Below are positions 4,200 to 40,397 of a stretch of DNA of 44,160 nt, one piece after another. Made by a program: the position numbers and the translations under genes. The first letter of the stretch is position 1; each line of letters starts with the position of its first letter. Origin of the DNA: a virus; IMG/VR virus record IMGVR_UViG_3300021256_000026, positions 1 to 44,160 of that record; one strand, given 5' to 3'. The notes below the pieces were generated by a model that saw only the letters and a program-made list of their open reading frames with translations, was not told the DNA's origin and searched no databases.

Positions 4200-4224
4200 A
4201 TCCTTTGTTTTTTTGAGGTTTTCG

Positions 4225-4232
4225 CAAAGATA
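4225..4232 (-). promoter_or_regulatory. Bacteroidota-type -7 promoter box (TATCTTTG on minus strand)
   Basis: Plus-strand caaagata is the reverse complement of TAnnTTTG. It lies 25 nt upstream of ATG 4199. Confidence 0.55.
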
Positions 4233-4320
4233 ACGATTATTTTCCCGACTGTCATAGACAATAAAGAGCACCCGGACGGGTGCTCCCTAAAAGTATATTC
4301 AAACTAACAAAAGAGCCGTA

Positions 4321-4908: not shown

Positions 4909-4919
4909 GGCGGTGAGAT

Positions 4920-17850: not shown

Positions 17851-19029
17851 ATGAACAAAAAAAATTTATCTTTGTCAGTTCGGCGCATACCTGTAATAGA
17901 ATGGACTGCGCCGATGTTTCACCAAGGTAAGGAGAACTACGTGGACTTCTACGCCTTTGACCCTGCTGCCGGCAGAATGCGGCGCAAGAAGGTGATGGTT
18001 GACAAGTTCCACACCAAGAAGGCGATGTGCAGTTACGCCAAACAAGTTATTGGCGAACTGACTCAGAAACTGATGCGCGGTTGGAATCCCTGGGTGGAGA
18101 CAAAGAGCGCTGCACAGTTTGTTCCATGGGAGGAGGTGTGCAGCAGATACCACCAGTACGTGGTGAAGTTGAACAACGACCATTCGTTCCGCGACGAGAC
18201 GATGCGCGACTACCTGTCACGTCTGAAGGTTCTTCAGGAGTGGGTGGCCACGTCACACTTCTCTGTGTATTACACCTATCAGTTGGATGAGTTTGTTGTG
18301 CTTCAGTTCCTCGACGAGATGTTCGTTGAGCGCAACTGGTCGCCCCAGACATACAACAACTATGTAGTATGGCTGAAGGGCTTCTGCAGATGGCTTATTG
18401 AGCGTCGGTACATCCACGATGACCCAACTGTAGGCATCAAGAGGGTGCGAAAGACCACGTCGAAGAACCGCACCGTAATTCCGGACCCGGTACTGACTAA
18501 CGTCAGGAAATACCTGGAGGAGCACAACAAGCACTTCCTCCTGGCGTGTCATATCCTCCACTACATGTTCATCCGTCCACATGAGATGTCTCTGCTGAAG
18601 ATAGGCGACTTCCATCTGCAGAAGAAGACGCTGGTGCTGCATGACGACCAGACGAAGAACCGTCAGAGTGCCGTTGTCACCCTGCCCGACCATATAGTGC
18701 GTCTGATGGTGGAACTTGAGGTGTTCCGTCATGCCGACTCCGACTACCTCTTCTCAGATGGTTTTGCACCAGGCAGTAAGTGGCGCGACTCGAAGCAGTT
18801 CCGTGACTACTGGAACAACCATATCCGTAAGGACCTACGCCTTCCTGCGGAATACAAGTTCTACTCTCTGAAGGACACCGGCATCACCAACATGCTGCGC
18901 TCCAACACCGACCCTCTGAGTGTTCGTGACCAGGCACGTCACTCGTCGCTGCTTATAACCAACACGTACACCCCTCTTGACATCAAAGATGCCAATCCGC
19001 TTATACTTGGCTACCGTGGAGTGCTCTGA
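17851..19029 (+). CDS. int: Tyrosine recombinase / phage integrase
   Basis: About 392 aa. The C-terminal catalytic region has RPHEMSLL and ARHSSLLITNTYT (H-x-x-R ... Y). ATG 17851 is preferred over GTG 17827. Confidence 0.8.
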   Translation: MNKKNLSLSVRRIPVIEWTAPMFHQGKENYVDFYAFDPAAGRMRRKKVMVDKFHTKKAMCSYAKQVIGELTQKLMRGWNPWVETKSAAQFVPWEEVCSRYHQYVVKLNNDHSFRDETMRDYLSRLKVLQEWVATSHFSVYYTYQLDEFVVLQFLDEMFVERNWSPQTYNNYVVWLKGFCRWLIERRYIHDDPTVGIKRVRKTTSKNRTVIPDPVLTNVRKYLEEHNKHFLLACHILHYMFIRPHEMSLLKIGDFHLQKKTLVLHDDQTKNRQSAVVTLPDHIVRLMVELEVFRHADSDYLFSDGFAPGSKWRDSKQFRDYWNNHIRKDLRLPAEYKFYSLKDTGITNMLRSNTDPLSVRDQARHSSLLITNTYTPLDIKDANPLILGYRGVL

Positions 19030-19050
19030 AGCCATGCATGACTCTCGCTG

Positions 19051-19126
19051 CTTATGTTACTTTTTGGCACTTTCTTTACCATGATGAAGCGGTTATGTTA
19101 GTTTTTTCCGTTTTCTTACCCTGATG
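19051..19126. repeat. Imperfect tandem repeat (~40-bp period) just downstream of int; candidate arm-type sites
   Basis: cttatgttactttttggcactttctttaccatgatg (19051-19086) compared with ggttatgttagttttttccgttttcttaccctgatg (19091-19126). Confidence 0.5.
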
Positions 19127-19583
19127 TAATGTGAAAGAAAAGACATTTATTTGTCGTTTATCTCGTTTTTTTTACTTGTATGTCATCGTTCTGCGCGGAT
19201 TGCGGTAGATTGTCCCCTGCTGCTTTCCGCCTCTCTTTTTTGCCCGCTGTCGATGTCGTTGACCTTGTTTCATTGTTTCTTCTCCTCGTCGCGGTTGTTG
19301 TGATGGAACATGATGCCGTCATGTTGTTTTTCCGTTTTTGCTGCGTCTGGCGGTTTGATTTTTCCTTAGCAAAGTTAGCACAGCCCACGAACGTCAAGTA
19401 CCGCGTGGCTATTTCTGCAGATTTATTTCCGACACGCTTTCCCCTTTTCAATGAAAAGAGGTATTTCATAAAAAATCTGCGAAATTCCTTGTCTTGTTGT
19501 TTTCCGCTGCATGCAGACAAATTGCACGTAAAAATTACAAAAGCGCCAGTCGCTTCAAGTTAAACTCTTAAAAAACAAGAATC

Positions 19584-19787
19584 ATGACAGCAATCACAAT
19601 CACATCACGTTTCACCACCGCAACAAGGGAAAGAAATACATACTATACAGTAGTAGTCAATGACTTCGACGGCGATAGCAAAGAGTATGAGATAAGCGCT
19701 TCAAGCGAGCAGGAGGCAAGCCGCAAGGCAGAGAACATCGCTCAGAACGAAGGCATCCAAGTAAGTTATATCGAGGTTTACAAATAA
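19584..19787 (+). CDS. Hypothetical small protein (67 aa), moron-like
   Basis: ATG-initiated ORF in a compact plus-strand pair after int. Confidence 0.45.
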   Translation: MTAITITSRFTTATRERNTYYTVVVNDFDGDSKEYEISASSEQEASRKAENIAQNEGIQVSYIEVYK

Positions 19788-19814
19788 AGTCAATCACATT
19801 AAAACATCAAGATT

Positions 19815-20027
19815 ATGAAAACTAAGAGCATCATGGTAGAGAGAGTGAAGTCCAACCGCAGCGAGAGCCGAGTATGGCGAGTTTATATCCCCGGCAGGAA
19901 GAAGTACGAGCAGTACTGCAAGAACGTCAAGAGTGCGTTGCACTACATGTTCCTTGTCAAGAAGCAGACCGGCTTGCCCCTTGACGACAACAGTTACTGC
20001 CGGTTGATGTGGGAGTCGCGCAAGTGA
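19815..20027 (+). CDS. Hypothetical small basic protein (70 aa), moron-like
   Basis: ORF 27 nt after the previous one, followed by the strong hairpin at 20044-20072. Confidence 0.45.
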   Translation: MKTKSIMVERVKSNRSESRVWRVYIPGRKKYEQYCKNVKSALHYMFLVKKQTGLPLDDNSYCRLMWESRK

Positions 20028-20043
20028 CTCCCATTATCATGAG

Positions 20044-20072
20044 CAAGCCCTCGCAATCACTGCGAGGGCTTG
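20044..20072. terminator. 12-bp-stem hairpin between convergent genes (terminator-like, no clear U-run)
   Basis: caagccctcgca-atcac-tgcgagggcttg. Confidence 0.5.
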
Positions 20073-20130
20073 TCGAACAATTACTACTAAACTAAAATTC
20101 AAATACTACTATGAAAAACAAAATTGTGAG

Positions 20131-20499
20131 TTACAAAATTCCAAGTGCTGTGAGTTCTTCTTTCACTTCACCTATGAAGGCATCGTGTTCTTGGACCTCT
20201 TCAATATCTTCGCCCTTGCGTTCCTTCCGGCTCAAGGAAGAGGCGAAAGATGCCACGTCCATCGCGTTGTTCAGCCCGTAAGCAGCCATTTCTGCAGCGT
20301 TGATACACTTTGCTCTTGTTATGGGTATTGGCACTTTCAGTTCCATTGCCCTTGTACCTTCTTCTGTATCTTCATGGAAGATATAGACATTAGCCACCGA
20401 CCCACGTTCGTAGGCCACCACTTTACCGTTTCTCCTTAGGAGTGTTCCCTGTCCGTCTTTGACAGACTCAGGAACCATTACTTTGCTTATAATCATCAT
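20131..20499 (-). CDS. Hypothetical acidic protein (122 aa) overlapping the RT 3' end; possible DGR accessory
   Basis: The ORF overlaps the RT stop by 32 nt. Not Avd-like in composition. Confidence 0.5.
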   Translation of the reverse strand: MMIISKVMVPESVKDGQGTLLRRNGKVVAYERGSVANVYIFHEDTEEGTRAMELKVPIPITRAKCINAAEMAAYGLNNAMDVASFASSLSRKERKGEDIEEVQEHDAFIGEVKEELTALGIL

Positions 20500-21829
20500 C
20501 TATATATGTTAATTGATTGGTGCTCCCCTTAAAGATATACCCGCACTGGTTTTCTATCTCTGCTTCTTCTATGGGCAGTATGTTGGACTTCCCAAATTCC
20601 TTTTCCCATAATTCCATCGACTGAATGAGGCAACTGTAATTCCCGTGAAACTCTCTTGCCTGGATCTTTCCCGTCGGCTGCCCGTCCTTTGTCTCTGGTA
20701 TGCCGATTAGGCACTTTATCCAGTTGGCCACGCCGTCTCCGTTTCTCCTTATCTCATAGTCATAGATTGTGAAGACAGTGTTGTTTTCCGCCAATTCTTT
20801 TACCTCAATCTTCCGCGCATCCATTTTCCTGTCAATGCGCTTTCTTGATGACAGTTCTTGCAATTTCATGTTCCTTTCTATTTTAGTTATCAATCCGAAT
20901 GCGTCCGCGTGCGACAACATGCCGTAGTAACTTGGCCATGCCTTAGAGTCGCTTTTCCGTGCTCTTTTCTCTGTGCTCTTCCTGATGGTAGTATAGCCCT
21001 TATCGTGAGAAGTTATTGTCTTATCCCCGTTTCTATGGAAGACATATCCGCAGAAATCGATGCTCTGCGTCATCGGGAATAACGACACGTCATGTCGTTT
21101 CATTCTTAAACCGAGGTCGTACCACCACCAGTTGCGCAATCTCCATTTCGCTCTCTGCAGTTCTTCTGCAGTTTGCGCCGCAAGGAAATAATTGTCGGCA
21201 TACCTCAGCACCACTGGAGCCATGGAATGCACCATGCAATCCATGTCAAGCATTATGATATGATGCGCCAGCGGTGATGACGGTGTGCCGATAGGAAACT
21301 CTCCATCAGGAGTGAACACCACGTTGACATAGAAGTCAATGAGGCGTTTGTCCTCAATAAGTCGTTTCAGTTTCTTTCGGAATACCTTGACCTTGATATG
21401 CTCATAGCATTTCCTCTGATCGCAAAGCATTCCGTACTTTAGGTCAGTTCTGTCATAGACCAAATGTTTCATCCTTCTCACCACACTTCGTTTTCTCTCC
21501 TTCGTAGTTATTCCGCATCCCTCTTTACAGTTGAGGGCAATTAGCGGGTCATGCTTGTCGTAGATTGGAGTGACATTCAGCACGAAGATTGTCTGCAGTA
21601 CCCTCGTGTACAACGATGGCGAAAGCAATTTTCTCCTTTTCCCGTTGGCGTTCGTTTTTTCGAGACGACGGTACTGCAAATTCTTTACGTAGGAACCATC
21701 GGCAATGTCGTGGAGGAGCATGTCAGCATAAGCATCCTTCTCCTCCATCATGCGCTTGACCTCTGGTTTCCCTCGGTGTCCTCGCGCCGCCTTTTCCATT
21801 GCCTTTAATATTTGTTCTTTCGTAAACAT
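20468..21829 (-). CDS. DGR reverse transcriptase (atypical motifs)
   Basis: RT motifs: RKLLSPSLYTRVLQ (1), MLCDQRKCYEHI (3/A), PIGTPSSPLAHH (4/B), LRYADNYFL (5/C), LGLRMK (6) and IDFCGYVF (7). It lies directly downstream of the TR. Confidence 0.9.
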   Translation of the reverse strand: MFTKEQILKAMEKAARGHRGKPEVKRMMEEKDAYADMLLHDIADGSYVKNLQYRRLEKTNANGKRRKLLSPSLYTRVLQTIFVLNVTPIYDKHDPLIALNCKEGCGITTKERKRSVVRRMKHLVYDRTDLKYGMLCDQRKCYEHIKVKVFRKKLKRLIEDKRLIDFYVNVVFTPDGEFPIGTPSSPLAHHIIMLDMDCMVHSMAPVVLRYADNYFLAAQTAEELQRAKWRLRNWWWYDLGLRMKRHDVSLFPMTQSIDFCGYVFHRNGDKTITSHDKGYTTIRKSTEKRARKSDSKAWPSYYGMLSHADAFGLITKIERNMKLQELSSRKRIDRKMDARKIEVKELAENNTVFTIYDYEIRRNGDGVANWIKCLIGIPETKDGQPTGKIQAREFHGNYSCLIQSMELWEKEFGKSNILPIEEAEIENQCGYIFKGSTNQLTYIDDDYKQSNGS

Positions 21830-21959
21830 TCAAGTGCTTGAGCATGACATCAGCGGTATCTCAACCGCCTTTGCCGGCAGTCTCTTTACATAGAATGCTC
21901 TTACTGCCCTGTCTTATAAATTCGGCACTTCAGGCCACGACACCGACACTCGTCTTTTA

Positions 21960-22070
21960 CACTTCAGCAGACCCAGCATTAGTAGCATTACAATTGGAGG
22001 CCAGGTTATTGCAATTAACCGAGCGCGCCGCATCAATTGCATTAGCAGCATTGCCACGAACACGGAGGCT
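21960..22070 (-). repeat. DGR template repeat (TR)
   Basis: 111 nt aligning to 22224-22334 at an offset of 264 nt. Nine AAY codons in the VR reading frame. Confidence 0.9.
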
Positions 22071-22163
22071 ATGTCGGTACCGTTTTCTCAACCATCCTTT
22101 CCCGTTTCAGTGGGCAGGTCCCTTTGCCTGTCTTGTCGGGAGACGAATGGATTTTAGTTGAGC

Positions 22164-22199
22164 GGTCGACTGCGTCGACCTTTATTGCGACTGCGTCGC
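22164..22199 (-). promoter_or_regulatory. Two GC-rich hairpins downstream of the VR (candidate DGR homing-enhancing structure)
   Basis: ggtcgac-tgc-gtcgacc (22164-22180) and gcgac-tgc-gtcgc (22187-22199). They share the core cgactgcgtcg. Confidence 0.5.
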
Positions 22200-24194
22200 T
22201 GCTGCGCTTTCTACATCGAGAAGCACTTGAGCAGACCCAGCAAGAGTAGCAGTACAAGAGGAGGCCAGGGTAGAGCAATAAACCGAGCGCGCCGCAGCAA
22301 TGGCAGAAGCAGCAGTGCCACGAACACGGAGGCCGGCACGATAGCGATGGTTCGCTGCTGTACCTAAAGACGCCTCCCATGTGTAGCAACATTCTCCTGT
22401 TGTTATGCTTGGCGCCTTCTCCAATTTCCAGACTCCATAAGAAGTCCTTAGACCCACACAATCGCTTTCTGTGAGTTCCGCCTCGCCAAGATGCTCATAG
22501 TCAGACATGAAGTCATAGTCTGCTGTCTGTTCCACCACATGATTGATCCCCTTCCACTTTGTCTGATCACACTCAATGTACTCGCGCACACGATGCGCCG
22601 AGTGCTGGTATGTTGTGACAATCTCCAGTCCACCTCCCATGTACACAAAGTGGTCGCCGCAAAGATTCATTCCCTCTGCTATAGGAGCACGCAAACGACA
22701 CTCTATGTCGAAGGTTACGGCTTGTTTTCCGCTGTTGAAAGCGTGCAGTGTCATTGTACGAGTACGGTACAGACGCGCGTTCATTCTTCCGCTGAGTAGT
22801 GGTGTGGCACCAGTAGGTGTCTGATATGAATACGTCTTTCCATAGAATGTGAAGTCATGACCTGGCGCCACGCCAAGTTCTGCTGCCATAGACAACGCCA
22901 TTTGCGCTTCCATGCAGAACATCTTTGGGGCCTGTCTATTCAGCAAATGTGACATAGAGGTACGGTGTCCGGCATTGTCATAATAGATTGTACTATTACT
23001 AGTCGACCACTGTGTATATGTCCACGCCGAAGCCGTTGACAATTTGTGTCGGACACCGCCATCTGCTAACCAGTTTGTAGCGTTATTGCTCATATCGTTA
23101 GACGATATTCCTGACGAGAACCTCGCTGCCGTATAAAGGTTTTTTGTTCCATAGGCAAGTTCTAGGCAAGTGATAAACGTGTTCCACGGATGCCACCCGC
23201 CCTCTGCCACAGGATACGGCTTTGTCGGGTCTGCGTTGCATGCCCTTGCCTTCTTGGCATTTTTCGCCTGGTTTACCCCGATGCCATCGTCGCCAGGATA
23301 GAGGGCATTATCTCCCTCTACATCGTTATCCAACACTCGGGGATACGTTCCGTCACCGAAGAAAAGTTCACCCGTGCCCGTCAAATCGTTCGTAGGTGCC
23401 AGTCCGTTACATCCCACCTCTCCAGTAGGATAGTCAAAATAAAAACAACGCAGTTGTCCGTTAATTTCCGTACATGGTCCCGCCGCTATTCCTGTGGGAA
23501 CGAGGGGATGCAGCCCCTTCACACCGTCCACCTTGCCATTATCAGCGATGATTCCGTTCAGTTGGCTGCCGTCGGCACCTTCCTCATGATCGAGGAGATA
23601 GACAGTATCCTTGCGTGCTATGAAGATGCTGTATTTTGTTTCGACCGTTTCCCATGGGCGCAGTATGCGCACTTCCTCTCCTTCTGCATTGTAGAGTTTC
23701 TGTGTCATTCCGTACTCATTGTAGAAAGTCTCAGGATTGTATTCTCCGGCATGACAATATAGGTTCTCGTGGTTAGGGTCAAGGTACAGTGTCTGCATGA
23801 GGCACTGTCTCGCCTGTCCCGCTGTTATGCCTATCGTCGGCGCAAACGAACCATCCTCAAAACGAAGAAAGTTGTTTCTCATCAACCAGCCTACTGGACG
23901 TTTCTTCACTTCACCATTCACGGGTGACATGTCAACAAGAACAGGGTACCAGTCAAGAGCAAGAGACACATCGCCATCAACACGCATTGCATCCGGATTC
24001 ATGGTTGCCCATGACTCCCAACGTCCTACGCAATACTTATTTGATGTTGTCGCCTTGCTGGTGATTTGCCTTATCTTGTCGCCGTACTCGGAGAGTTTGG
24101 CGTTCCCAACAGGAACATCGTTCTCCTCGATGGCAGCCTTAATGTCTGCCTTGCTTTCAAGTATTCTTCGGAGTTTTTCTTTAATTGTTGCCAT
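22182..24194 (-). CDS. DGR target protein: tail-fibre / receptor-binding-like, variable C-terminus
   Basis: 670 aa at the distal end of the tail module. The VR encodes residues GLRVRGTAASAIAAARSVYCSTLASSCTATLAGSAQV, ending 13 codons before the stop. Confidence 0.85.
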   Translation of the reverse strand: MATIKEKLRRILESKADIKAAIEENDVPVGNAKLSEYGDKIRQITSKATTSNKYCVGRWESWATMNPDAMRVDGDVSLALDWYPVLVDMSPVNGEVKKRPVGWLMRNNFLRFEDGSFAPTIGITAGQARQCLMQTLYLDPNHENLYCHAGEYNPETFYNEYGMTQKLYNAEGEEVRILRPWETVETKYSIFIARKDTVYLLDHEEGADGSQLNGIIADNGKVDGVKGLHPLVPTGIAAGPCTEINGQLRCFYFDYPTGEVGCNGLAPTNDLTGTGELFFGDGTYPRVLDNDVEGDNALYPGDDGIGVNQAKNAKKARACNADPTKPYPVAEGGWHPWNTFITCLELAYGTKNLYTAARFSSGISSNDMSNNATNWLADGGVRHKLSTASAWTYTQWSTSNSTIYYDNAGHRTSMSHLLNRQAPKMFCMEAQMALSMAAELGVAPGHDFTFYGKTYSYQTPTGATPLLSGRMNARLYRTRTMTLHAFNSGKQAVTFDIECRLRAPIAEGMNLCGDHFVYMGGGLEIVTTYQHSAHRVREYIECDQTKWKGINHVVEQTADYDFMSDYEHLGEAELTESDCVGLRTSYGVWKLEKAPSITTGECCYTWEASLGTAANHRYRAGLRVRGTAASAIAAARSVYCSTLASSCTATLAGSAQVLLDVESAAATQSQ
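22224..22334 (-). repeat. DGR variable repeat (VR)
   Basis: It differs from the TR at 16 of 111 positions. 15 of these are at template adenines (T on the plus strand). Confidence 0.9.
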
Positions 24195-24207
24195 ATATTT
24201 GAGTTTG

Positions 24208-24215
24208 CAAAGGTA
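24208..24215 (-). promoter_or_regulatory. -7 promoter box (TACCTTTG) upstream of the DGR target gene
   Basis: Plus-strand caaaggta, 13 nt upstream of ATG 24194. Confidence 0.45.
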
Positions 24216-24253
24216 AGTATAATTTATTTAATTTAGGGCATCCTAGAAAAATT

Positions 24254-24907
24254 TTAATTATCTCCCTGCTCGTCATCAACGAGTTCTGGATCAGGTGTTG
24301 GCGACCAATTCCCCTCTCCGTTTATCTCGTCGAGAATGTCGGATATATCCCCTATTAGTTCCTCCATTCTCGCGATTTCGTTCGACACTGTATTATGCAT
24401 CTCTACTTTGAGGTTTGCAAAGTTCTCCTGCCTTTGAGCCTCGTTCTGCACGAGCATTCGATTAACGTTCTGAGTGTCAGATACTAGAGTCTCGAGAGTG
24501 GTTTTTAGCGGAGTCAGGTCATTCTTAAGTGTTGTCAACTGCGAGACGAGAGCCTGCATGCCTGGTACAGCATTAGCAATCTCGTCTTCCAGAGTGCTTT
24601 TAAGGTTAGCAATCCAACCGCTCACTGTTGTCTGAAGCGCATCGATGCGTGCGCCAGTGGTGCCGTTTATTTCGCTCTTCAGGGATTGCAGAGCGGAATA
24701 GATGACGAGGTTTTTGACGAAGTTAGTCGATGTAGGGCTGATTTCATCGTCCCCCACGCTGGGTAGGTTGTCTATTTCTTCCAATATCGCCTGAAGTCGG
24801 AGGCCTATGCCTTCGATTACCCCACCTACACGTTCGGCGGTGTTTCCTCCTTCGGTGGTTTCCCCCGCGATTTGCTGTCCAATCTGTATAATCTCTTGTG
24901 GTGTCAT
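24254..24907 (-). CDS. Coiled-coil tail-fibre-associated protein (217 aa)
   Basis: Heptad-like Leu/Glu-rich sequence immediately upstream of the receptor-binding-like gene. Confidence 0.55.
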   Translation of the reverse strand: MTPQEIIQIGQQIAGETTEGGNTAERVGGVIEGIGLRLQAILEEIDNLPSVGDDEISPTSTNFVKNLVIYSALQSLKSEINGTTGARIDALQTTVSGWIANLKSTLEDEIANAVPGMQALVSQLTTLKNDLTPLKTTLETLVSDTQNVNRMLVQNEAQRQENFANLKVEMHNTVSNEIARMEELIGDISDILDEINGEGNWSPTPDPELVDDEQGDN

Positions 24908-24925
24908 AATGTATATATGTTAATG

Positions 24926-26050
24926 TTAATCAAATGGTAATGAGAACGTTCCATCGAAAGTTCCGTGGCCAGCCATTGACGTTGCCGTGTCCACCTCGTA
25001 GATATCTCTCTTGTCGGCGATGCGCCATGTGAGAGTTATTGACTCCGGCGCTGTCTTAGACTTGCGGAACTTAGCGTCGATGTCCGTAATGGTGACAGGC
25101 ACCATCATCCTATAGTCGGCGAACAAGTTCACCTCAGGCGAGCGGTGGACCTCGAGCACTGTTGCCTTTTCCTCTCTTGATATCCACCCGCTGTTAGTCT
25201 TATGCTCCAGCCAGAACTCCGCGTCGAGACGGGAGTATCTCCACTCGCACTGCCCAAAGTCAGCATCCATCTCATGCTCCTCCTCGTCGATGCCTCTGAA
25301 GACGTAAATCTCAGGCAGTCCGAAAGAATTGATGAAAGCAAAAGGCGTCTCGGTGTAGTAGTGGTTATGGTCCACCGTGACATGAATCTGGTCAGTCTGC
25401 TCCCCTGCTGTTCGCAGAATGATATCATACGAATGAACTTTACAATTCTTCCACACCCTCGGAGATATCCTCGACGAGAAGAGCGCATTCATTGATGCGT
25501 CAAGCAACTGGTACCCAGAGCCAGTAGAATAGGAAGCGATATCAATAGTGGCCTCCTGCCTTGAGCCGTCGTATGTATATACCACCCTTGCGCTCACCCG
25601 TCTCGTCACGTTTCCCATCTTTGGCACCCACACCCAGAACTTCTGATTAGGAGTCACACGAGCATGGTCTATCTGCATGGGGAACTCGTCCATGTCGCCT
25701 ACCCCCTCGCGGTAGTAGCCGGAATAATAGTACACCCTGCCGTTGAAACTCTGCGAAGTCTCAGGGAAAGAGAAAGTGATGTCGGCATACGGTTTGCGCA
25801 GCGTTTCGGCTGTTGATATGCCACCCTTCATCTCTTGGCTGAGAAGAATAGCCTGGTTGACAAGTTTGGACAACTCACCAAACCTCACCACCCCATCGAC
25901 GGGAGTATATGTGGCGGTGTTGTCATACCTTGTCACCCCATCGGCATCGTCGATACGAATGCGCACCGCCACGTCATCCGTTGCGGCCACATACACATCG
26001 TCGAGTTCTGATGCCCATAGTGGAGGAGTAAAGTTCTTCAGTTGCGGCAT
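24926..26050 (-). CDS. Hypothetical virion protein (374 aa)
   Basis: ORF 3 nt downstream of the putative portal. Possibly a minor head protein by position. Confidence 0.6.
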   Translation of the reverse strand: MPQLKNFTPPLWASELDDVYVAATDDVAVRIRIDDADGVTRYDNTATYTPVDGVVRFGELSKLVNQAILLSQEMKGGISTAETLRKPYADITFSFPETSQSFNGRVYYYSGYYREGVGDMDEFPMQIDHARVTPNQKFWVWVPKMGNVTRRVSARVVYTYDGSRQEATIDIASYSTGSGYQLLDASMNALFSSRISPRVWKNCKVHSYDIILRTAGEQTDQIHVTVDHNHYYTETPFAFINSFGLPEIYVFRGIDEEEHEMDADFGQCEWRYSRLDAEFWLEHKTNSGWISREEKATVLEVHRSPEVNLFADYRMMVPVTITDIDAKFRKSKTAPESITLTWRIADKRDIYEVDTATSMAGHGTFDGTFSLPFD

Positions 26051-26053
26051 ATC

Positions 26054-27451
26054 TTACGAGAGTTTACGTGTTGTTCCTGCCCCGCTGTCGAGCGTGGTGA
26101 GGATAGTGTTGCGGAAACGGAGTTCCACATCCTTGTTGAACTTCATCTTCAGGAAGAGTCGAAGAGGGTCGAGAATGTTCTGGCGGTCGAGCCATGCGTT
26201 GGCAATATTCACGAGGAACGCCTCACGGATATTGCTTCCACCCTGATTGCCAGCATACACGCCACCCGGCATCTGCGAGCCCATCACGTTAGGGTTCACC
26301 ATGAGAGCGAAGAGAATCTCCGAGTTCGCTGCTGAAGAAGTAACCAGGTTCTCCTGTCCTGCGTTGTACTTGTTTGACAGCGGTGTAATCTTCCACTCCT
26401 CTTCAACCCGTCCGTTATACTCGTTGACGGCATAGTTGGTGAAGATAGGCTTCTCGGCGTTCTCCGGTCCGAGAAGGTTTCGCTCTATGCTGTTCATGTA
26501 CTCGTTAATCTTCCCCTCACGCTTCTTCGCGTCATTCTCGAAGTCCGCGAGCGGAAACTTCTTATCCCAGAAGGAATAAGGAATCTGCACATGCCACTTC
26601 CATGTGGTCTGATTCTTATATGCAGTCCGGAGGAACTGCGGTATCTTGTGCGCAATGTCAATCCACCCCAGAACGTATGCAGCCCACCATATAGGCTCGC
26701 TGTATATCTCATCGTTAGACCAGGCATCCCTCACGGCATAGGCGAATCCACGCGGCATCTTACCTCGGAACTGCAGCACCTCTGCGTGAAGTTCCGGGTC
26801 GAAGTCCATCAGGAGCGGCAGCGTCCAGTAGTCAGGTCTGTCCTTCTTGTCAGGCGACTCATGTCTGCTCGTGCCCACCGCTGCGTTCTGCCATGAGTTA
26901 GCCACAATGCACTCCTGGTTGCCGTCCACGTCAGGCACCGTGAAGCGGTAGTGCAAACAGTTGAGCGCGTTGATACCTATGATATCCCCCTTCGCGTTCG
27001 GGACAAACTGAGCCACACCCACTCCCACCTTCAGGTAGTCGCGCAGCACCTTCTCCATGTAGCGTCGCACCATGCGCGACGAGATACATTCCTTGATGGC
27101 ATCATCCTTGATGGGCGTCAGTATCTCGTTTCCGTCGTCGTCGTAACCCGTCACCTCGCACGGGAAAATTCCCTGCCCCATTGTCAGGCGCATGAGGAAC
27201 TTCAGACCCGTGTTGAGCACTGTTGTCGTGCGCACGGTGTCGATGGCCATTGCAGGAAACATATTGTCTTTACCCCACGACACTACACGCTTATTATCAA
27301 GATAGATGAAATCCCTCGTGTCGTCGTCATAGGGGAAAAGAGCCCTTGAACGCTCCTTTATAGCCTCGCGGTCGCTAACAGTTGACGCGAAGAAAGATGT
27401 TGACTGCATCAGAAGAGGCGTGCCCTCCTTGTTGTACTCTATTTCTACCAT
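26054..27451 (-). CDS. Putative portal protein (assigned by size and elimination)
   Basis: 465 aa. It is the only unassigned ORF of portal size in the genome. No motif recognised by eye. Confidence 0.4.
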   Translation of the reverse strand: MVEIEYNKEGTPLLMQSTSFFASTVSDREAIKERSRALFPYDDDTRDFIYLDNKRVVSWGKDNMFPAMAIDTVRTTTVLNTGLKFLMRLTMGQGIFPCEVTGYDDDGNEILTPIKDDAIKECISSRMVRRYMEKVLRDYLKVGVGVAQFVPNAKGDIIGINALNCLHYRFTVPDVDGNQECIVANSWQNAAVGTSRHESPDKKDRPDYWTLPLLMDFDPELHAEVLQFRGKMPRGFAYAVRDAWSNDEIYSEPIWWAAYVLGWIDIAHKIPQFLRTAYKNQTTWKWHVQIPYSFWDKKFPLADFENDAKKREGKINEYMNSIERNLLGPENAEKPIFTNYAVNEYNGRVEEEWKITPLSNKYNAGQENLVTSSAANSEILFALMVNPNVMGSQMPGGVYAGNQGGSNIREAFLVNIANAWLDRQNILDPLRLFLKMKFNKDVELRFRNTILTTLDSGAGTTRKLS

Positions 27452-27453
27452 GG

Positions 27454-27807
27454 TTATGTTGTGGGTGATGTTTGACGGTTGTATCCATTGCTCCAGTCAA
27501 TGGGATGACCGTTGAGTTCGATGATATTCGTAATCTTCACCGGGAACACGTGTTCCTCGGGGTTGCCCTTGCAGTCGCATGGTTGAATCCCACGGAACCG
27601 CATCTTCTTCATGTTCACCCCCTTCACTCCTGTGACATACACCTGAGGGAAGAAGTGCAGTTTCCCCTCGAGAGTGCAGAACTTGATAGACATGATGCGT
27701 TTCTTGCCGTCTGGCAGTGTGCGAGCGTCCAGTTCGTCGATCATCTGCCTGGCCGTCATCGGTGATTTATTCGTTTCCTCCATTATTTCAAGATATTCAA
27801 GTGTCAT
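27454..27807 (-). CDS. Hypothetical protein (117 aa)
   Basis: The start was moved to ATG 27807 (MTLEYLEIMEE), 1 nt after the upstream TAA. Confidence 0.55.
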   Translation of the reverse strand: MTLEYLEIMEETNKSPMTARQMIDELDARTLPDGKKRIMSIKFCTLEGKLHFFPQVYVTGVKGVNMKKMRFRGIQPCDCKGNPEEHVFPVKITNIIELNGHPIDWSNGYNRQTSPTT

Positions 27808-27808
27808 A

Positions 27809-28351
27809 TTACCAGTTATATAGATAGCCGACGGAGACTGTCGGCGACTGTTGCGGGAAGTCATATCCTGCCGCGACGAACCAGTGCCGGTATCGGTATG
27901 CCGCCATGAGAGCCGCGTGGTTGCTTCCCAGAGAAGAAAGCAGACCGAGAGAATGGTGCCTCGCGAATCTGTCTGAATTGAGAGTGAGCATTACCTCACG
28001 GCCTGCTATGCTGTTTCTCCACAAGGTGTCGCGTATGACGAGCATTGCAGTATCGTTGTGGAACACCGTGTCACGGTAGATATGTTCCGCGAGATATTGA
28101 CGAATAATCTCCTGCGTATCCACAGGCTCCGGCGGTATCCGCTTAGTCTGATATATCGTCTCTGCAGGGGAAGGAACTTTCCGTGTTCGCCACTGTATTT
28201 TGGCAGACGGTTGAGGAGCCTTGTCAGCAGGCTGCTGGTCAGAGCAGCGAGACACGAGCACATTGACACCCATGCCGGCGAGGAACACAATCCACGCCAC
28301 CACTATCCAGGCACCTATCTCCTCAATGTTAGGCTTCTTCATGTTTCTCAT
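27809..28351 (-). CDS. Signal-anchor membrane protein (180 aa); lysis-accessory candidate
   Basis: N-terminal TM IGAWIVVAWIVFLAGMGVNVLV. Overlaps the end of the holin-like gene. Confidence 0.5.
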   Translation of the reverse strand: MRNMKKPNIEEIGAWIVVAWIVFLAGMGVNVLVSRCSDQQPADKAPQPSAKIQWRTRKVPSPAETIYQTKRIPPEPVDTQEIIRQYLAEHIYRDTVFHNDTAMLVIRDTLWRNSIAGREVMLTLNSDRFARHHSLGLLSSLGSNHAALMAAYRYRHWFVAAGYDFPQQSPTVSVGYLYNW

Positions 28352-28583
28352 CTCTTATTAATTCTCGCAACTGCGCTTCCGCTTGACCAAGTTTCGTTTT
28401 GAAATAGATGCTCACACCGAATATTCCACCGGCATAGGTCAGAGCCTGAGCGATGTACCATAGCACTCCATCAGCGATGTCGTACCCATTGAGGAAGAAA
28501 GACAGGAATGCCAGTACGATACCGGATAGTATCATTGCCACTGCCGTGCCGTACTGCACCCATTCTTTGATGTTGTTCGTCAT
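28329..28583 (-). CDS. Holin-like small membrane protein (84 aa)
   Basis: Two hydrophobic helices followed by a charged C-terminus (LRELIRDEKHEEA). It has its own -7 box. Confidence 0.5.
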   Translation of the reverse strand: MTNNIKEWVQYGTAVAMILSGIVLAFLSFFLNGYDIADGVLWYIAQALTYAGGIFGVSIYFKTKLGQAEAQLRELIRDEKHEEA

Positions 28584-28601
28584 ATTGTCTATGTTTCAAT
28601 G

Positions 28602-28609
28602 CAAAGATA
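28602..28609 (-). promoter_or_regulatory. -7 promoter box (TATCTTTG)
   Basis: Plus-strand caaagata, 18 nt upstream of ATG 28583. Confidence 0.55.
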
Positions 28610-28644
28610 GTTAAATCAGAGATATAACGTTAGGACACCTCCTG

Positions 28645-29487
28645 TCAGTGTCTCCTCACGTTTCGCTGGGCCATTTCCGCTGCCCTCATCCTTGCCTCCC
28701 TGATGCGTCTGTTCATGATGCGGAAGGCGTCTGTTGCGGGTATTGCCTTGTACTTCTCCATGTCTGCCAGGTTATCCCCTACAAGAGCATCGAAAATGCT
28801 CACCCAGTCAACAGGCTTCGGTTTCCTCTGCCTTTTGTTGCGTCTGATGCCAGGTTCTTCCTCCTCTGGTTCTGGAAAGACCAAGGGGAAAGCGCGTGAC
28901 AGCCATGACCTGATAAGAATGAAGTTGAGAAATACCGCCTGCTTCGTTATCTCCGGCAGTCGCTCGACCTGCTCGATGTGCTCGTCGAGAACAACAAGTC
29001 TCTTGCTGTTCTGCAACTGAGGCTCCACAGGTTCCTCGACGGAGAACACCTCATTGTCCCTCTTATACAGTGACGCTATGAAGGCGTGAAGATTGTTCCT
29101 CTCCTGATTGACGCAATAGAGGGAGAAGAAAGTGTCTGCAGTCATAAACTGCTGCAGAGAGCATCCCTTCAGTCTGTCGCCTGGAGACTCGAGAGACGTT
29201 CCCGGGAGAGTTTCGATGAAGAAGGCGTTGTGGGGTTCGCGGAGGTTCTGTATCCAGTCCAGTTCGTGCATGAGCACCCACATCTGATAGTCGCTGAGAA
29301 GGCTAATTACCATTTTCCTGATGCCAAGAAAATGGTGTAGGAACTCGGACAGGCCTACCTCACCCAGCCACAGTTTCACGGCATAGACAAACTGTTTTGC
29401 ATCCAGTTCACGCCAGTTCTCGGGGAGAGTCGTCTTTATCGTCCTCGTCCTGAAGAACCTACGATATTCGAGAGTGATATTCTTCAT
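28645..29487 (-). CDS. Hypothetical tail-module protein (~280 aa)
   Basis: The start was moved to ATG 29487 (MKNITLEY), 1 nt after the upstream TAA. Confidence 0.6.
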   Translation of the reverse strand: MKNITLEYRRFFRTRTIKTTLPENWRELDAKQFVYAVKLWLGEVGLSEFLHHFLGIRKMVISLLSDYQMWVLMHELDWIQNLREPHNAFFIETLPGTSLESPGDRLKGCSLQQFMTADTFFSLYCVNQERNNLHAFIASLYKRDNEVFSVEEPVEPQLQNSKRLVVLDEHIEQVERLPEITKQAVFLNFILIRSWLSRAFPLVFPEPEEEEPGIRRNKRQRKPKPVDWVSIFDALVGDNLADMEKYKAIPATDAFRIMNRRIREARMRAAEMAQRNVRRH

Positions 29488-29488
29488 A

Positions 29489-30007
29489 TTAGTCAAAAGG
29501 TTTAGTGAAAGTCTGGTCAAACGTTCCTTCTATGCGGAAGCGCTCCTCGATGTCAGTGACACACCGGTTCTCGGGCAAGAGGAAAGACGCGCGGACACCG
29601 TAGAGAGCATTCTGCTCGTTCATGATTTCCTCCACCTTCATGCCGTCGAAGGAGATGCCGAACAAGAACTTGTGCTTGCGTGAGCGCCGGTCGGTCATCA
29701 TCATCATGACAAAATCATTCAGGATGCTGTCGCACTTCTCTATGGCCTTTTCTATCTGGTCGTAGTCGGCAGTGTCTGTGACATGCTGCCATATGTCGAG
29801 AGTCATATTAGCGTAGCGGCGAAGTCCGTTGCCGGTAGTCCTGTATGTGTAACCCTCGCGGTCGAGGAACACACCAGGATAACGCATCTGCTGAGCAAGA
29901 GCAGTGTTGCGTCTGTCGGTGCTCAGGTCGATGAAATGAATCTCGTCGTCTCGGTGATGGATGTCATGGTGACGGCGACAAAGGTCGATGATATATTCTT
30001 TAAACAT
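29489..30007 (-). CDS. Hypothetical tail-module protein (172 aa)
   Basis: ORF on the operon strand. Confidence 0.6.
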   Translation of the reverse strand: MFKEYIIDLCRRHHDIHHRDDEIHFIDLSTDRRNTALAQQMRYPGVFLDREGYTYRTTGNGLRRYANMTLDIWQHVTDTADYDQIEKAIEKCDSILNDFVMMMMTDRRSRKHKFLFGISFDGMKVEEIMNEQNALYGVRASFLLPENRCVTDIEERFRIEGTFDQTFTKPFD

Positions 30008-30025
30008 AGTGCTATTTTTTTAAAG

Positions 30026-32614
30026 TTACTCTTCATCAGGAACCACCTCGGACTGCTGTGGTGGCGCTGCCCATCCCGCTGCCTCGTGTGCATTGTCAGG
30101 CAAGTATCTGTTGGTGTCGTTGTCATCAGTCTTCATGATGGCCATTGAAAAATCCCCCTCAGGCAACTCACTTATTTCCGTTGTACCTCGACTGGTACCC
30201 GCCTCAATGGTCACGTCGCATGTTCGGTACTGCGAACCATCAGAATAGCCAACTTCCACCTCTATCGGATATTCCAGGACCTCTGATGTTCTCACGTCGA
30301 TAGTACCTCCTACGTGTTCGGTGCTTGCGAGGAATGCGACAGAGACATATACCTCCTTAGTCTGCACAGGCACGACTTCGGCGGTGTATGACGTACGCCC
30401 ATCATCCACCGCAGGCGTGATGTCGCCATCGAATGCGAAGTTGTTGTAAGCCATGAGACTGCTGTAGAAGTATGCCGTGCGCGTTCCCTTCTGCATGGTG
30501 AATACCTTACGCATGACAGTCTGTGCGCTTCGAGCGATGAAGGCAAACGACACGTTGCATGGCAGCGACTCTGAAGAGAGAAAGACAATGCGTCCCTCCT
30601 TCTGGTACACCTTAGCCGTTATGGTTATGGTGCGTTGCGGCAGCACCTCTTCGGCGTTGTCAAGCACCTGGTAGAACGTTCCCTCGATGACCTCAGAGAC
30701 GGCGTTTGCCGTTGCACGATGCTTCAGTTCCGCGCAGAAGAAGCGCTGATTTCCGATGATGAAAATCTTCCGCGAGTCGCGCAAGTCAAGCGAGCGGAAC
30801 TTGATGGTAACCGGCTGTGTGAAGTTAATATTGAGGGTGTTCTTGTAGTAGCGGTTATACATTCCCGTCTCTCCGAGAATCTGCATATTGCAGAGAGGTT
30901 CGCCGTAGTCGTGGCGGGCTGTGCGAAGGAAGCAAGGGAAAGCCCAGTAACCGCCGGTCCATTTCCCGCGATAATCTTCGGAACCGTAGAGCGCATACGT
31001 TGTTGCCTCGACTATATTTGACGGCACCACGACAGGGAGATAGATGAAACTTGTCGCGTTGTATTGCCAGTTGCAATTTTTCTTGCCGAGATAAAATCCC
31101 ACAAACAAGCGTTCCTCCATATTGTCCAGTTCAGCGCCCTCGTTGATAAACTCGTTCAGGCCCTTCTCGTTGCTGTCTGTCGATTCCGTGTCCGGAATGT
31201 CTGACTGTCTAGCAAACGGTACTGGCAAGAACACCTTCCTGTCATTGCGGTATGCATCTTGCCACCAAACTATTTCCGTGGGTATTATTTTCAGTTTTAC
31301 CTCGTCGTCGGTTCGCTCGTCATAGTGGCCACTGTATTGATTAACAATACGTATGCACATTGCCGTCGGCTTCTCTCTGTCGTCGATTGCTCTCAGTACA
31401 ATGAGGTTATTGTCAGTATAACCCATATCCCTATACACTATTGAACGATTATATTTTGCCGCGACGGTATTCTTAGACCACCCCCATGTAGGCATCACCC
31501 CATCGTTCATGTGCAGCCAACAGTTCATGAAATGCTCCTTGAAGACAGGGTCTGTGTATTGGCTGCTATGGTCGGGACAATCCTCTATGAGCAATGTCTT
31601 CCACAGTTCTTTGTCGATGGCCCAGTAATTGTATGTCTCCGTCTTGGGGAAGTCGTATGAAACGTTGTGATGAAGCAGTCCCTCTGGCGAGTCCTCGTCG
31701 TACTTGCGTTGGATATCCCCGATGATGTCGCTACTGTCAATAACTTCCTCCCCGGCATTGTCGTAGAAGAAGTTCTGCTGAAGTATCTCAACCTTTTTCT
31801 CTGCCTGGTCAACCACGATGACGCAGCCGGTGAAATTCTCCACCATGGAAAGGAAGTCATCAATGAGCATGTTGGGCATCATCTCGGCGTAGTTCCGCGA
31901 GTGATAACCGTTTATCACCACCAACTTGCTCATTGCCGGGTCTTCGCGGATGAAGTTTGCCTTCATGGTGTAGCCCAGTGCCTGCACCACACGCTCTACG
32001 ATGGCGTAGAGATAAGGCAACGGGTTGAACGTGGTGCCAGTGACAAATGTCGCCTGTTTGTTGGCACCAATACACATCTCGTTGTAGATGACATTGTCCT
32101 CGTAGTTCACGTACATGAATGTGCCAGACAGGAGAAACTCGTTCTTGACGCAGACTGGGGAGCACACGAAGTCGTAGGTACCAGGAGTGAGCGACTGCAT
32201 GGCCACTTCAGGAGTGAGTTCTGGCGTGCTTCCGAGGTCGAGCGAGTGCAGCGTCTGGTCGCCTCCTGAAAGATAGTTGAGTTCGGAGTTGCCGGATACA
32301 ATCTGTATCTTCGCCTTTCGCTCGTCTATCTCCAGCACTATTTCGGTGCCCTTGATGACGATTCCCTTCTCGGAGAAGAGTACAGCAGCCCTTCCTGAAG
32401 GTCTTCGCGGACAGTCGATGCGGTGCATGTCGTGATAGACATAGGCGTTTTGCGGGTCCCCGAGGTCGATGTCTATGTCAAGAGTGTGCTGCCCCTCCTT
32501 GCTGAAGAGAGGATTGCGGTCGTAGAACTCGAACGACGAGCCTGCCGAGAGGTTGACGCTCATCGCGTCTATAAGTAGTGTTAGCATGATGATGATTTTA
32601 GCGACGTGATACAT
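30026..32614 (-). CDS. Large tail protein (distal tail / hub-like by position)
   Basis: About 860 aa immediately downstream of the tape measure gene. The start is ambiguous (32614, 32587 or 32563). Confidence 0.6.
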   Translation of the reverse strand: MYHVAKIIIMLTLLIDAMSVNLSAGSSFEFYDRNPLFSKEGQHTLDIDIDLGDPQNAYVYHDMHRIDCPRRPSGRAAVLFSEKGIVIKGTEIVLEIDERKAKIQIVSGNSELNYLSGGDQTLHSLDLGSTPELTPEVAMQSLTPGTYDFVCSPVCVKNEFLLSGTFMYVNYEDNVIYNEMCIGANKQATFVTGTTFNPLPYLYAIVERVVQALGYTMKANFIREDPAMSKLVVINGYHSRNYAEMMPNMLIDDFLSMVENFTGCVIVVDQAEKKVEILQQNFFYDNAGEEVIDSSDIIGDIQRKYDEDSPEGLLHHNVSYDFPKTETYNYWAIDKELWKTLLIEDCPDHSSQYTDPVFKEHFMNCWLHMNDGVMPTWGWSKNTVAAKYNRSIVYRDMGYTDNNLIVLRAIDDREKPTAMCIRIVNQYSGHYDERTDDEVKLKIIPTEIVWWQDAYRNDRKVFLPVPFARQSDIPDTESTDSNEKGLNEFINEGAELDNMEERLFVGFYLGKKNCNWQYNATSFIYLPVVVPSNIVEATTYALYGSEDYRGKWTGGYWAFPCFLRTARHDYGEPLCNMQILGETGMYNRYYKNTLNINFTQPVTIKFRSLDLRDSRKIFIIGNQRFFCAELKHRATANAVSEVIEGTFYQVLDNAEEVLPQRTITITAKVYQKEGRIVFLSSESLPCNVSFAFIARSAQTVMRKVFTMQKGTRTAYFYSSLMAYNNFAFDGDITPAVDDGRTSYTAEVVPVQTKEVYVSVAFLASTEHVGGTIDVRTSEVLEYPIEVEVGYSDGSQYRTCDVTIEAGTSRGTTEISELPEGDFSMAIMKTDDNDTNRYLPDNAHEAAGWAAPPQQSEVVPDEE

Positions 32615-39903: not shown

Positions 39904-39978
39904 ACTGGGAGGCGAGCCCCTAGCCCGATGCGCAACCCGAGAGAAGAACTTCTCTTCGCCTGTGGCTCGCCTCCCAGA
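39904..39978. repeat. 75-nt extended-hairpin repeat, copy A
   Basis: 12-bp outer stem gggaggcgagcc/ggctcgcctccc and inner hairpin agagaag-aa-cttctct. About 90% identical to copy B. Confidence 0.85.
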
Positions 39979-40043: not shown

Positions 40044-40397
40044 TCATTCAACCTGTCCTGTGGACTCGTTTAAGAAACTAACGCTGAAGCACATCCAACT
40101 TTCTTTATCTGTCCAGTCTCCTGCCAGGTACTTGAGCCTTACGCTTACCTTACGTGGAACCATGTTGCCTAAGCCGTTCATCGTCTTTATATCGGCAACG
40201 ACATGATAGGTATGTTCACTTGTTTCTTCCACTCCCACGACATCGTATTCGAGATCGTTAGAAGAAATTACTTGTTCCTTCACGAAATCCTCGGCAATAA
40301 TGCCGGCTCTTGTTGCGCTTGGTGAGTTGTCATCACACGATGTTAGCAACATAATCGCAATCAAAGACACGATTGTTAAAAAGAATCTTTTTTTCAT
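40044..40397 (-). CDS. Lipoprotein (117 aa), moron-like
   Basis: Signal peptide plus lipobox MKKRFFLTIVSLIAIMLLTSC. Confidence 0.7.
   Translation of the reverse strand: MKKRFFLTIVSLIAIMLLTSCDDNSPSATRAGIIAEDFVKEQVISSNDLEYDVVGVEETSEHTYHVVADIKTMNGLGNMVPRKVSVRLKYLAGDWTDKESWMCFSVSFLNESTGQVE

Follow-up and report, generated by a model that had tools for sequence, protein, structure and literature searches.

Analysis of a viral stretch of 44,160 nucleotides (nt), IMG/VR record IMGVR_UViG_3300021256_000026, referred to in full as the window, points to a functional diversity-generating retroelement (DGR) whose reverse transcriptase (RT) carries the motif YADN in place of the usual YxDD. Classically, the second Asp of YxDD counts as a catalytic residue. 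The reading that we favour, with a probability of about 80%, is that the element is a DGR devoid of the accessory protein Avd, located in the tail module of a ~44-kb temperate phage of Prevotellaceae, in which Asn can take the place of the second Asp, the YADN enzyme is active and mutagenesis follows the mechanism proposed below. The enzyme belongs to a lineage defined by GxxxSP in motif 4 and by a domain of ~125 amino acids (aa) following the thumb. A first-pass annotation, made from the sequence of the window, had left two options, an unusual active RT lineage with a different accessory solution or a recently inactivated DGR. The former is supported, as the unusual traits are lineage-wide and the only change in 11.9 kb of an otherwise identical genome is found in the variable repeat (VR); the latter does not hold, as the same RT occurs in that genome and YADN is common to 39 of 119 relatives.

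Organization of the element

On the minus strand, the element is arranged as a target open reading frame (ORF), a gap of 112 nt, a template repeat (TR), a spacer of 130 nt from the TR end to the RT start, the RT ORF and an ORF of 122 aa (ORF122). The features that define it are as follows, with bRT being the RT of the Bordetella phage BPP-1.

22182..24194, minus strand: DGR target gene, 670 aa, an ORF in the phage tail/structural module
22224..22333, minus strand: VR, 110 nt, 86% identity to TR
21960..22069, minus strand: TR, 22 adenines, near-repeat of VR
20468..21829, minus strand: DGR reverse transcriptase, 453 aa, matching Pfam RVT_1
21272..21295, minus strand: motif B/4, PIGTPSSP (GxxxSP), aligning with bRT PIGSLTSQ
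21191..21202, minus strand: motif C, YADN (TAT GCC GAC AAT), residues Y210, A211, D212 and N213, with AAT at 21193-21191

The VR corresponds to the C-terminal ~45 codons of the target (aa 621-657 of 670), and its mismatches to TR fall in the first and second codon positions of aa 627-656. The target protein has no match in Pfam or NCBIfam. TR and VR differ at 15 of 110 nt. The first-pass annotation had counted 15 A-site changes; 14 of them are at TR adenines (nine A to C, five A to T, no A to G), while the remaining one is a G in TR and a C in VR near the 3' end (21965/22229). This G/C difference, 6 nt away from the repeat's 3' end, is fixed in every examined copy of the phage; the site may represent a directionality determinant of the IMH/IMH* (initiation of mutagenic homology) type. 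Between the target stop codon (22182-22184) and the start of TR at 22069 no ORF is present, which bears out the earlier statement that avd is missing from this position. The codons of motif C, re-read on the minus strand, and the non-SQ motif B at 21295-21272 were likewise as described. The adenine-specific TR/VR pair, the VR at the 3' end of the target and the adjacent RT of the DGR clade identify the element as a DGR; GxxxSQ, YxDD and Avd, also used to recognize DGRs, are lacking. The RT is the sole RVT_1 match among the 64 ORFs of the window.

Evidence that the YADN enzyme is active

The most direct evidence comes from a second assembly of the same phage. A contig of ENA assembly ERZ12302812 is 99.941% identical to positions 19898-31799 of the window over 11,902 nt, and all seven differences are in the VR, at sites of TR adenines (22244, 22273, 22274, 22301, 22302, 22306 and 22307). 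The RT, the TR and the rest of the 11.9 kb are identical to the window. Seven VR-only A-site differences in 11,902 nt are the pattern by which ongoing mutagenic retrohoming would be recognized, and the comparison of assemblies thus argues that the YADN RT is active. In the same direction, the TR is 100% identical in the window and in loci L001, L081-L084 and L085, while their VRs differ; in L001 and L085, whose DNA is 95% identical, the VR differs from that of the window at 14 positions. RT codons of the window and of a 95%-identical relative show 21 synonymous and 3 non-synonymous differences, indicative of purifying selection on the RT.

Activity can also be appraised across the lineage, where, given sufficient upstream DNA, nearly all loci show the order target-TR-RT together with a TR/VR pair biased to adenine. 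When 16 non-redundant YADN pairs (RTs 35-100% identical) were compared with 75 YADD pairs, the proportion of changed TR adenines was 52% and 48%, respectively, and the A-to-C, A-to-G and A-to-T fractions were.39/.11/.50 and.41/.14/.45 (chi-square p = 0.28). Non-A mismatches per site were 1.4% in YADN and 1.5% in YADD loci. For the DGRs of Bordetella and Bacteroides, the reported density of change is about 50% (bioRxiv 10.1101/2024.11.15.621889). As a side observation, A to G is rare throughout the lineage (11-14%, with A to C about 40% and A to T 45-50% in L001-L116 and the window) and accounts for 0 of 14 changes in the window.

Distribution and origin of the YADN motif

A search of 5.8 billion proteins returned 303 full-length RT homologues (protein clusters), and motif counts rest on the best 120 of these 303 (90%-identity cluster representatives), with motif C readable in 119. 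Motif C is (Y/F)ADN in 39 and (Y/F)ADD in 80. In a neighbour-joining tree, parsimony requires at least six changes between D and N and places N in two deep clades, one of which holds 28 clusters besides the window, with identities reaching down to about 56%. More distant YADN RTs, 35-46% identical to that of the window, are found in rumen Prevotellaceae and Bacteroidaceae metagenome-assembled genomes (MAGs). The codon for Asn in the relatives is AAT in 13 and AAC in 6, and that for Asp is GAT in 62 and GAC in 16. In motif 4, G181 and S185 are conserved across the lineage and P186 is present in 66 of 69 sequences; the best 120 representatives end this motif in SP (117) or SS (3) and never in SQ. 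At the level of 50%-identity representatives in which both motifs are readable, YxDN occurs in 5 of 37 SP-type, 4 of 52 SQ-type and 2 of 6 other RTs. Thus, as far as the distribution of the motif can tell, the second Asp of YxDD appears to be naturally interchangeable with Asn in this lineage and sporadically in SQ-type DGR RTs. Ordinary-looking DGR-type RTs with Y/F-x-D-N outside the lineage are P0265, P0287, P0295 and P0298 (SQ-type) and P0317 and P0335 (GxxxSH).

An origin of YADN by deletion within YADDN was considered and discarded: from motif C to the conserved KWR there are 22 residues in both types and the alignment is gapless. The unchanged spacing to the downstream motifs indicates a substitution and no frame or indel artefact. 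The first-pass annotation had named many functional DGR RTs with YADN/SSP as something that would speak against an exceptional locus, and this is what was found, with 39 of 119 representatives and 16 A-mutated YADN loci. This makes the locus an ordinary representative of its lineage and not a singular oddity. All four unusual traits (YADN, GxxxSP, no avd and the C-terminal domain) appear to be inherited within a large lineage and not to be damage.

The repeated exchange of D and N raises the possibility that YADN marks an attenuated or conditionally active enzyme, in which a G-to-A transition or its reverse toggles the residue and tunes activity, or in which a different metal or a helper or RT acting in trans is needed. 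Some of the at least six independent switches are shallow, as for P0107 and P0054/P0070 inside D clades, and in other polymerases changes at the equivalent motif position alter metal preference, as seen with GDD mutants of poliovirus 3Dpol and with the ADN motif of birnaviruses. On the other hand, the extent and spectrum of VR mutation are equal in N and D loci, being outputs per event that are silent on rate; the deep and stable N clades weigh against rapid on/off switching; and the window encodes a single RT. We consider attenuation or conditional activity unlikely though conceivable, the rate of retrohoming lying beyond sequence data.

Much less probable is that the change from D to N killed the RT recently and that the A-site differences are relics of past activity. 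In favour of such a loss is the classical catalytic role of the second Asp. Its counterpart D216 is counted among the active-site aspartates of bRT (bioRxiv 10.1101/2023.10.23.563531). However, genomes identical over 11.9 kb and sharing the YADN RT differ solely at seven VR sites of TR adenines, the mutational density and spectrum are common to YADN and YADD loci, the RT is under purifying selection, and Asn is kept by means of both AAT and AAC in clades down to 35% RT identity. A-site-only turnover of the VR, matched N and D spectra and the presence of one RT in the window therefore lead us to reject recent inactivation. An origin of the AAT codon in faulty sequencing or assembly, or in a mutation private to one genome, is virtually dismissed, with no supporting point found, since codon and protein recur in six or more other independent assemblies (an identical RT in ENA ERZ28612970, ENA ERZ12302812, GCA_001684375.1 and Logan SRR873596, and a 99%-identical YADN RT in IMG 2799112784 and the Prevotellaceae MAG RUG064) and Asn is present in 38 other protein clusters.

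Classification and structure of the reverse transcriptase

Residues 1-~325 of the RT comprise the N-terminal extension, fingers, palm and thumb, and are equivalent to the whole of bRT. Motif 7 (IDFCGYVF) spans residues 257-264 and is followed by 189 residues, in agreement with the ~190 of the first-pass annotation; about 125 of these lie beyond the thumb. The family profile has its best match in the PDB with bRT (8ub7_A, E 2.8e-11, covering bRT 15-322 of 328). The AlphaFold2 (AF2) model of the RT has a mean predicted local distance difference test (pLDDT) value of 83.6 and superposes on bRT in its active state (8ub7_A) with a TM-score of 0.76 and a root-mean-square deviation of 3.6 A. This structure gives the highest TM-score and the lowest deviation, whereas the Foldseek E-value is marginally better for a group II intron RT. 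In pairwise alignment, D137 corresponds to bRT D138, D212 to D215 and N213 to D216. Cryo-electron microscopy of bRT places Mg2+ at 2.2 and 2.3 A from D138 and D215 and does not report it beside D216 (bioRxiv 10.1101/2023.10.23.563531). These contacts make a non-ligand role plausible for the second position of motif C.

An exhaustive hidden Markov model (HMM) search of 1.84 billion representatives returned 73 proteins at E <= 1e-30, and the nearest neighbours outside the lineage were ordinary SQ-type DGR RTs; thus, the lineage is a branch of DGR RTs and not of retron or group II RTs. The opposite view, that a retron or group II intron type enzyme merely adjoins a repeat, can draw on GxxxSP being typical of these classes, a likeness that the first-pass annotation had noted for SP in motif B, on the label 'retron-type reverse transcriptase' carried by the homologue of the crAss-like phage crAssE-Sib and on weak NCBIfam matches. 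At the level of the whole protein this view fails and its probability is negligible: the group II model TIGR04416 scores 51.9 bits against a cut-off of 300 and the retron model NF038233 33.5 bits against 235; the best-superposing structure and the closest sequence neighbours are DGR RTs; almost every relative with sufficient flanking DNA (91 non-redundant pairs) has an adenine-specific TR/VR in a fixed architecture; and an Rfam scan of 19000-24500 at E <= 1 gave no match of any kind, intron and retron RNA included. A comparison of the C-terminal domain with known domains in Pfam and the PDB gave no match, be it of maturase, DNA-binding or any other type.

Accessory functions in the absence of Avd

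Two further features of the RT region are of relevance here.

20471..20854, minus strand: extra RT C-terminal domain, residues ~326-453 in the AF2 model, ~125 aa past the thumb, isoelectric point (pI) 5.27
20131..20499, minus strand: ORF122, small acidic protein of 122 aa, pI 5.09, a conserved neighbour of the RT that overlaps its 3' end by 32 nt

The Avd profiles PF22296 and NF033474 matched none of the 49 small ORFs of the window at E <= 0.1, and their performance was controlled with Bbp7 of BPP-1 (7e-36 and 6e-31, respectively). An Avd homologue elsewhere in the genome, which the first-pass annotation had envisaged, is accordingly not among these ORFs. The Avd-like fold that it had considered for the C-terminal domain or ORF122 was equally not borne out, as hhalign against Avd gave a probability of 4.5% for the domain and 0.1% for ORF122.

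The core of the C-terminal domain (residues 338-423) is a confidently modelled alpha/beta unit of three long beta strands and helices, followed by a tail (427-439, NQCGYIFKGSTNQ) that is nearly invariant and modelled with low confidence. The domain is conserved in all full-length family members and is also present in some SQ-type RTs; therefore it is older than the change from SQ to SP. A profile of the domain retrieved no relative from Pfam or the PDB.

ORF122 had been described as unrelated to the RT. In fact, it is conserved directly after the RT in relatives: 71 homologues were found, and in 46 of the 116 SP-lineage loci a member of the family comes directly after the RT. Its AF2 model (pLDDT 91) consists of a four-strand beta meander and three helices; fold searches gave a best E-value of 0.88 in the PDB and of 0.019 in BFVD, with a few uncharacterised proteins of crAss-like phages at a TM-score of ~0.5. 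With the ORF122 HMM, the acidic ORFs beside SQ-type RTs that have the C-terminal domain rank in the top 25 places among 243 neighbouring ORFs. Two sequences were added to the HMM in the first iteration, and ORFs still outside the profile scored E 9e-13 and 7e-7. Beside SQ-type RTs, the ORF122-family genes occupy either the classical avd slot (L124-L133) or the position right after the RT (L134-L175). Examples of acidic genes in the avd slot, between target and TR, are those of L124 (3136-3465) and L130 (3221-3592). The family is absent beside short RTs, with the one exception of L177, where a 317-aa RT without the C-terminal domain (4001-4954) is followed by an ORF122-family gene (4909-5274), possibly as a result of a split gene. 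In L007, L010, L014, L016 and L021-L023, ORF122-like sequence lies inside a longer frame (~265-290 codons from stop to stop) and may be fused to a second domain. Taken by their co-occurrence, the acidic protein appears to be tied to RTs with the C-terminal domain in a non-universal manner, the domain being the only constant extra element. ORF122 is a candidate accessory factor, and the C-terminal domain, ORF122 or both may replace Avd.

A contrast in which short RTs have Avd and long RTs lack it was tried on loci L176-L203 and was not established: there, the ORFs directly upstream of TR are small targets, and neither these nor the small basic ORFs downstream of the RT have a Pfam Avd match. 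In the related short SQ-type loci L178-L202, the targets are tiny (105-139 aa), end about 215 nt upstream of the RT (e.g., L182 3333-3719) and bear a hypervariable stretch directly before a conserved VGSRLC motif; a basic ORF of ~98 aa, with no Pfam Avd match, overlaps the RT stop.

RNA and DNA elements around the repeats

The repeats are flanked by the following elements.

22071..22083, minus strand: 5' arm of a TR-clamping helix, ACGGUACCGACAU, pairing with 21949-21937
21937..21949, minus strand: 3' arm of the helix, GUGUCGGUGUCGU, in the TR-RT spacer, pairing with the 13 nt upstream of TR
21923..21937, minus strand: conserved spacer hairpin, its short stem closed by a tetraloop and carrying a single bulged base, found in 96 of 97 loci
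21911..21915, minus strand: AAGAC motif, nearly invariant in the spacer alignment
22164..22207, minus strand: three GCA-triloop hairpins (22207-22201, 22199-22187 and 22180-22164), 3' of VR and across the target stop
20044..20072, minus strand: 12-bp G+C-rich hairpin with no U tract, between the ORF122 stop and a convergent gene

In 45 non-redundant loci, the arms of the clamp pair with a mean energy of -22.6 kcal/mol when cognate and of -15.7 kcal/mol when non-cognate. Each arm pairs with its own partner in spite of an identity of only 31% among the upstream arms of different lineages. For the spacer hairpin, RNAalifold on 23 sequences predicts five pairs, four of which show compensatory changes and are never broken. 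The AGAC positions are invariant in the same alignment; among 43 unique spacers, the first A of the motif is replaced by G in three and the second A by U in one. AAGAC is a candidate for a part of the priming or template-pairing region.

Of 58 non-redundant relatives, 51 have a perfect hairpin of at least 6 bp within 80 nt downstream of the VR; the triloop is GCA in nearly all of them, and the stems differ between lineages. DGR targets are known to require a hairpin or cruciform, and the GCA hairpins fit this requirement; from its position and recurrence, the array is likely a target-recognition element of the cruciform type. The hairpin at 20044-20072 is probably the end of the DGR transcription unit; a simple terminator scan did not call it.

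Proposed mechanism

In the mechanism that we propose, an RNA covering TR and its flanks would first be made, and TR would be clamped by the helix between the 13 nt upstream and the spacer, with the conserved hairpin and AAGAC next to it. The RT would then copy TR and misincorporate opposite adenines, with D137 and D212 as metal ligands and N213 in a supporting, non-ligand position. The resulting cDNA would replace the VR, aided by the GCA-triloop hairpins 3' of it. Finally, the task that Avd performs in Bordetella, namely placing the template:primer duplex in position, would fall to the C-terminal domain of the RT, possibly together with the ORF122-family protein. What the data show is the anatomy of a DGR, recent adenine-specific turnover of the VR beside an identical YADN RT, conservation and purifying selection throughout the lineage, covarying RNA helices and the lack of a recognisable Avd; the role of N213, the functions of the domain and of ORF122 and the site of priming are what we infer.

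A number of points weigh against this reading. Mutation of the second Asp of YxDD in HIV-1 RT and in other RTs has been reported to abolish activity. The evidence for activity comes from assemblies, and an RT acting in trans is formally conceivable, though the window holds one RT only. The Pfam Avd models matched nothing near the related short SQ-type RTs, so that the sensitivity of Avd profiles is limited; Avd itself is poorly conserved. ORF122 is absent within +/-5 kb in epsilon crAss-like phages, in the L008 group and in rumen Prevotella subclades, that is, in several subclades of the same RT lineage, so that it cannot be needed throughout. For the C-terminal domain no relative in fold or sequence is recognisable, and a role in replacing Avd is a conjecture. 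The minimum free energy of the whole 352-nt TR region is unremarkable (z = -1.08); the support for the RNA elements therefore rests on the difference between cognate and non-cognate duplex energies and on covariation.

A bolder proposal, which we put forward tentatively and consider less likely than its negation, is that RTs with the C-terminal domain are self-sufficient, Avd-independent DGR machines in which the domain, with or without ORF122, positions the TR:spacer RNA, and whose active site of two carboxylates and one Asn may alter metal use or misincorporation. If true, such a DGR would be distinct in mechanism and more compact, and its enzyme would be the first natural reverse transcriptase for which function with YxDN is shown.

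Phage, host and spread of the lineage

The phage, one of the gut or rumen, has a circular genome of ~44,033 bp, the ends of the assembly overlapping by an exact direct repeat of 127 nt (1-127 and 44034-44160 of the window). It encodes an integrase, a tape-measure protein, a Clp-type head protease, an amidase and HTH regulators. A 95%-identical phage region (L085) lies inside a 143,017-bp contig (OMXS01000015.1, 56493-67851) of the rumen MAG 'uncultured Prevotellaceae RUG064'. To judge from this copy inside a MAG contig, which points to both the prophage state and the host, the window would therefore be a temperate tailed phage of Prevotellaceae. Other Pfam matches in the phage include a RadC-like JAB domain protein, a resolvase/DNA invertase and a DUF6712 protein. 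A small ORF (40044..40397, minus strand) is flanked by a pair of direct repeats of 58 nt with 93% identity (39904-39961 and 40427-40484), which may be operator or regulatory repeats.

The RT lineage is seen only in phage contigs and in genomes or MAGs of Bacteroidales, with the exception of one MAG labelled Candidatus Limiplasma (L107). Relatives are encoded on 170 IMG/VR stretches, and the lineage is abundant in gut and rumen viromes. Against phage records, megablast of the region gave no match and tblastn matched crAssE-Sib and three RTs at about 24% identity, and nothing else.

Implications

YxDD serves to filter for functional RTs, and mutants in which D is changed to N or A are taken as 'dead' controls. 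A widespread and evidently active YADN lineage shows that such a filter can discard working enzymes, and it provides a natural system for probing the real role of the second Asp. DGR finders that require GxxxSQ, and probably those that require YxDD, miss a whole lineage of Bacteroidales phages. How DGRs work without Avd has been a question since 2018, for which the co-occurrence of the RT domain with the acidic protein, the position of the latter in the avd slot or after the RT, and the TR clamp with the spacer hairpin offer candidate answers. A DGR of two genes or one would be attractive for targeted-mutagenesis tools.

A literature search returned no report of YADN, YMDN, YVDN or YxDN in an RT. 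The comparative evidence of an active YxDN RT and the repeated alternation of D and N in DGR RTs appear to be new, as do the link of the C-terminal domain with a family of small acidic proteins across SP- and SQ-type RTs and the covarying TR clamp and spacer hairpin in a lineage without Avd. GxxxSP, the Avd-less architecture and C-terminal RT extensions are typical of the lineage and in part already published.

Comparison with known systems

The closest described system is that of crAssE-Sib (OR575929), whose RT is 49.8% identical to that of the window over 97% of the query, including the C-terminal domain; full-length alignment to the window RT also extends to loci L037-L080. The crAssE-Sib DGR has been reported to have GxxxSP, on account of which such elements are missed by myDGR (Viruses 2024;16:513, PMC11054128); the searched passages of that paper do not mention Avd or an accessory gene, a C-terminal domain or RNA elements. 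As in the window, GxxxSP is present, the order is target-TR-RT and avd is absent. In contrast, motif C is YADD in crAssE-Sib and YADN in the window, the genome of crAssE-Sib is that of a 151-kb crAss-like phage while the window represents a tailed phage of ~44 kb that encodes an integrase and also occurs as a prophage of Prevotellaceae, and the epsilon crAss loci lack the ORF122-family gene that the window has.

Among the classes of DGRs described by Wu et al. in 2018, 29% of DGRs lack an accessory gene and Avd is present in ~74% (NAR 46:11, PMC5758913). Lineage 3 is devoid of avd, while the range of Lineage 3a is limited to Bacteroides and its relatives; the accessory protein CH1, which is small (160-169 aa) and acidic (pI 4.7), is found only in DGRs without avd; and about 20% of DGR RTs are extended at the C-terminus by up to ~150 aa that contain no known motif (PMC5758913). 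Compared by these descriptions only, the window fits the traits of Lineage 3a and Architecture A/E (CH1), namely no avd, a Bacteroidales host and an acidic flanking gene, and ORF122, with 122 aa, is shorter than CH1. Neither GxxxSP nor YxDN is mentioned in the searched passages of the same paper.

A pair of D and N in motif C is found in active palm-domain polymerases, such as the L protein of Mononegavirales (GDNQ) and VP1 of birnaviruses (ADN). Both are RNA-dependent RNA polymerases and have no family-level relationship with DGR RTs.

The best-studied comparison is provided by the DGR of Bordetella phage BPP-1, which is organized as mtd-avd-TR-brt (structures 8ub7-8ubf), whereas the window has no avd. 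The bRT of 328 aa, with YMDD and GxxxSQ, needs a pentameric basic Avd; the RT of the window, with 453 aa, YADN and GxxxSP, carries an extra acidic C-terminal domain and no Avd. In both systems, the transfer from TR to VR is adenine-specific at about 50% density and the RT cores superpose (TM-score 0.76). Both have a hairpin 3' of VR, which in the window is an array with GCA triloops. The duplex between upstream region and spacer, together with the tetraloop hairpin, resembles the avd:Sp 'cPRT stop' duplex and stem-loop of BPP-1, and this parallel in layout suggests that the same logic of priming in cis operates in both.

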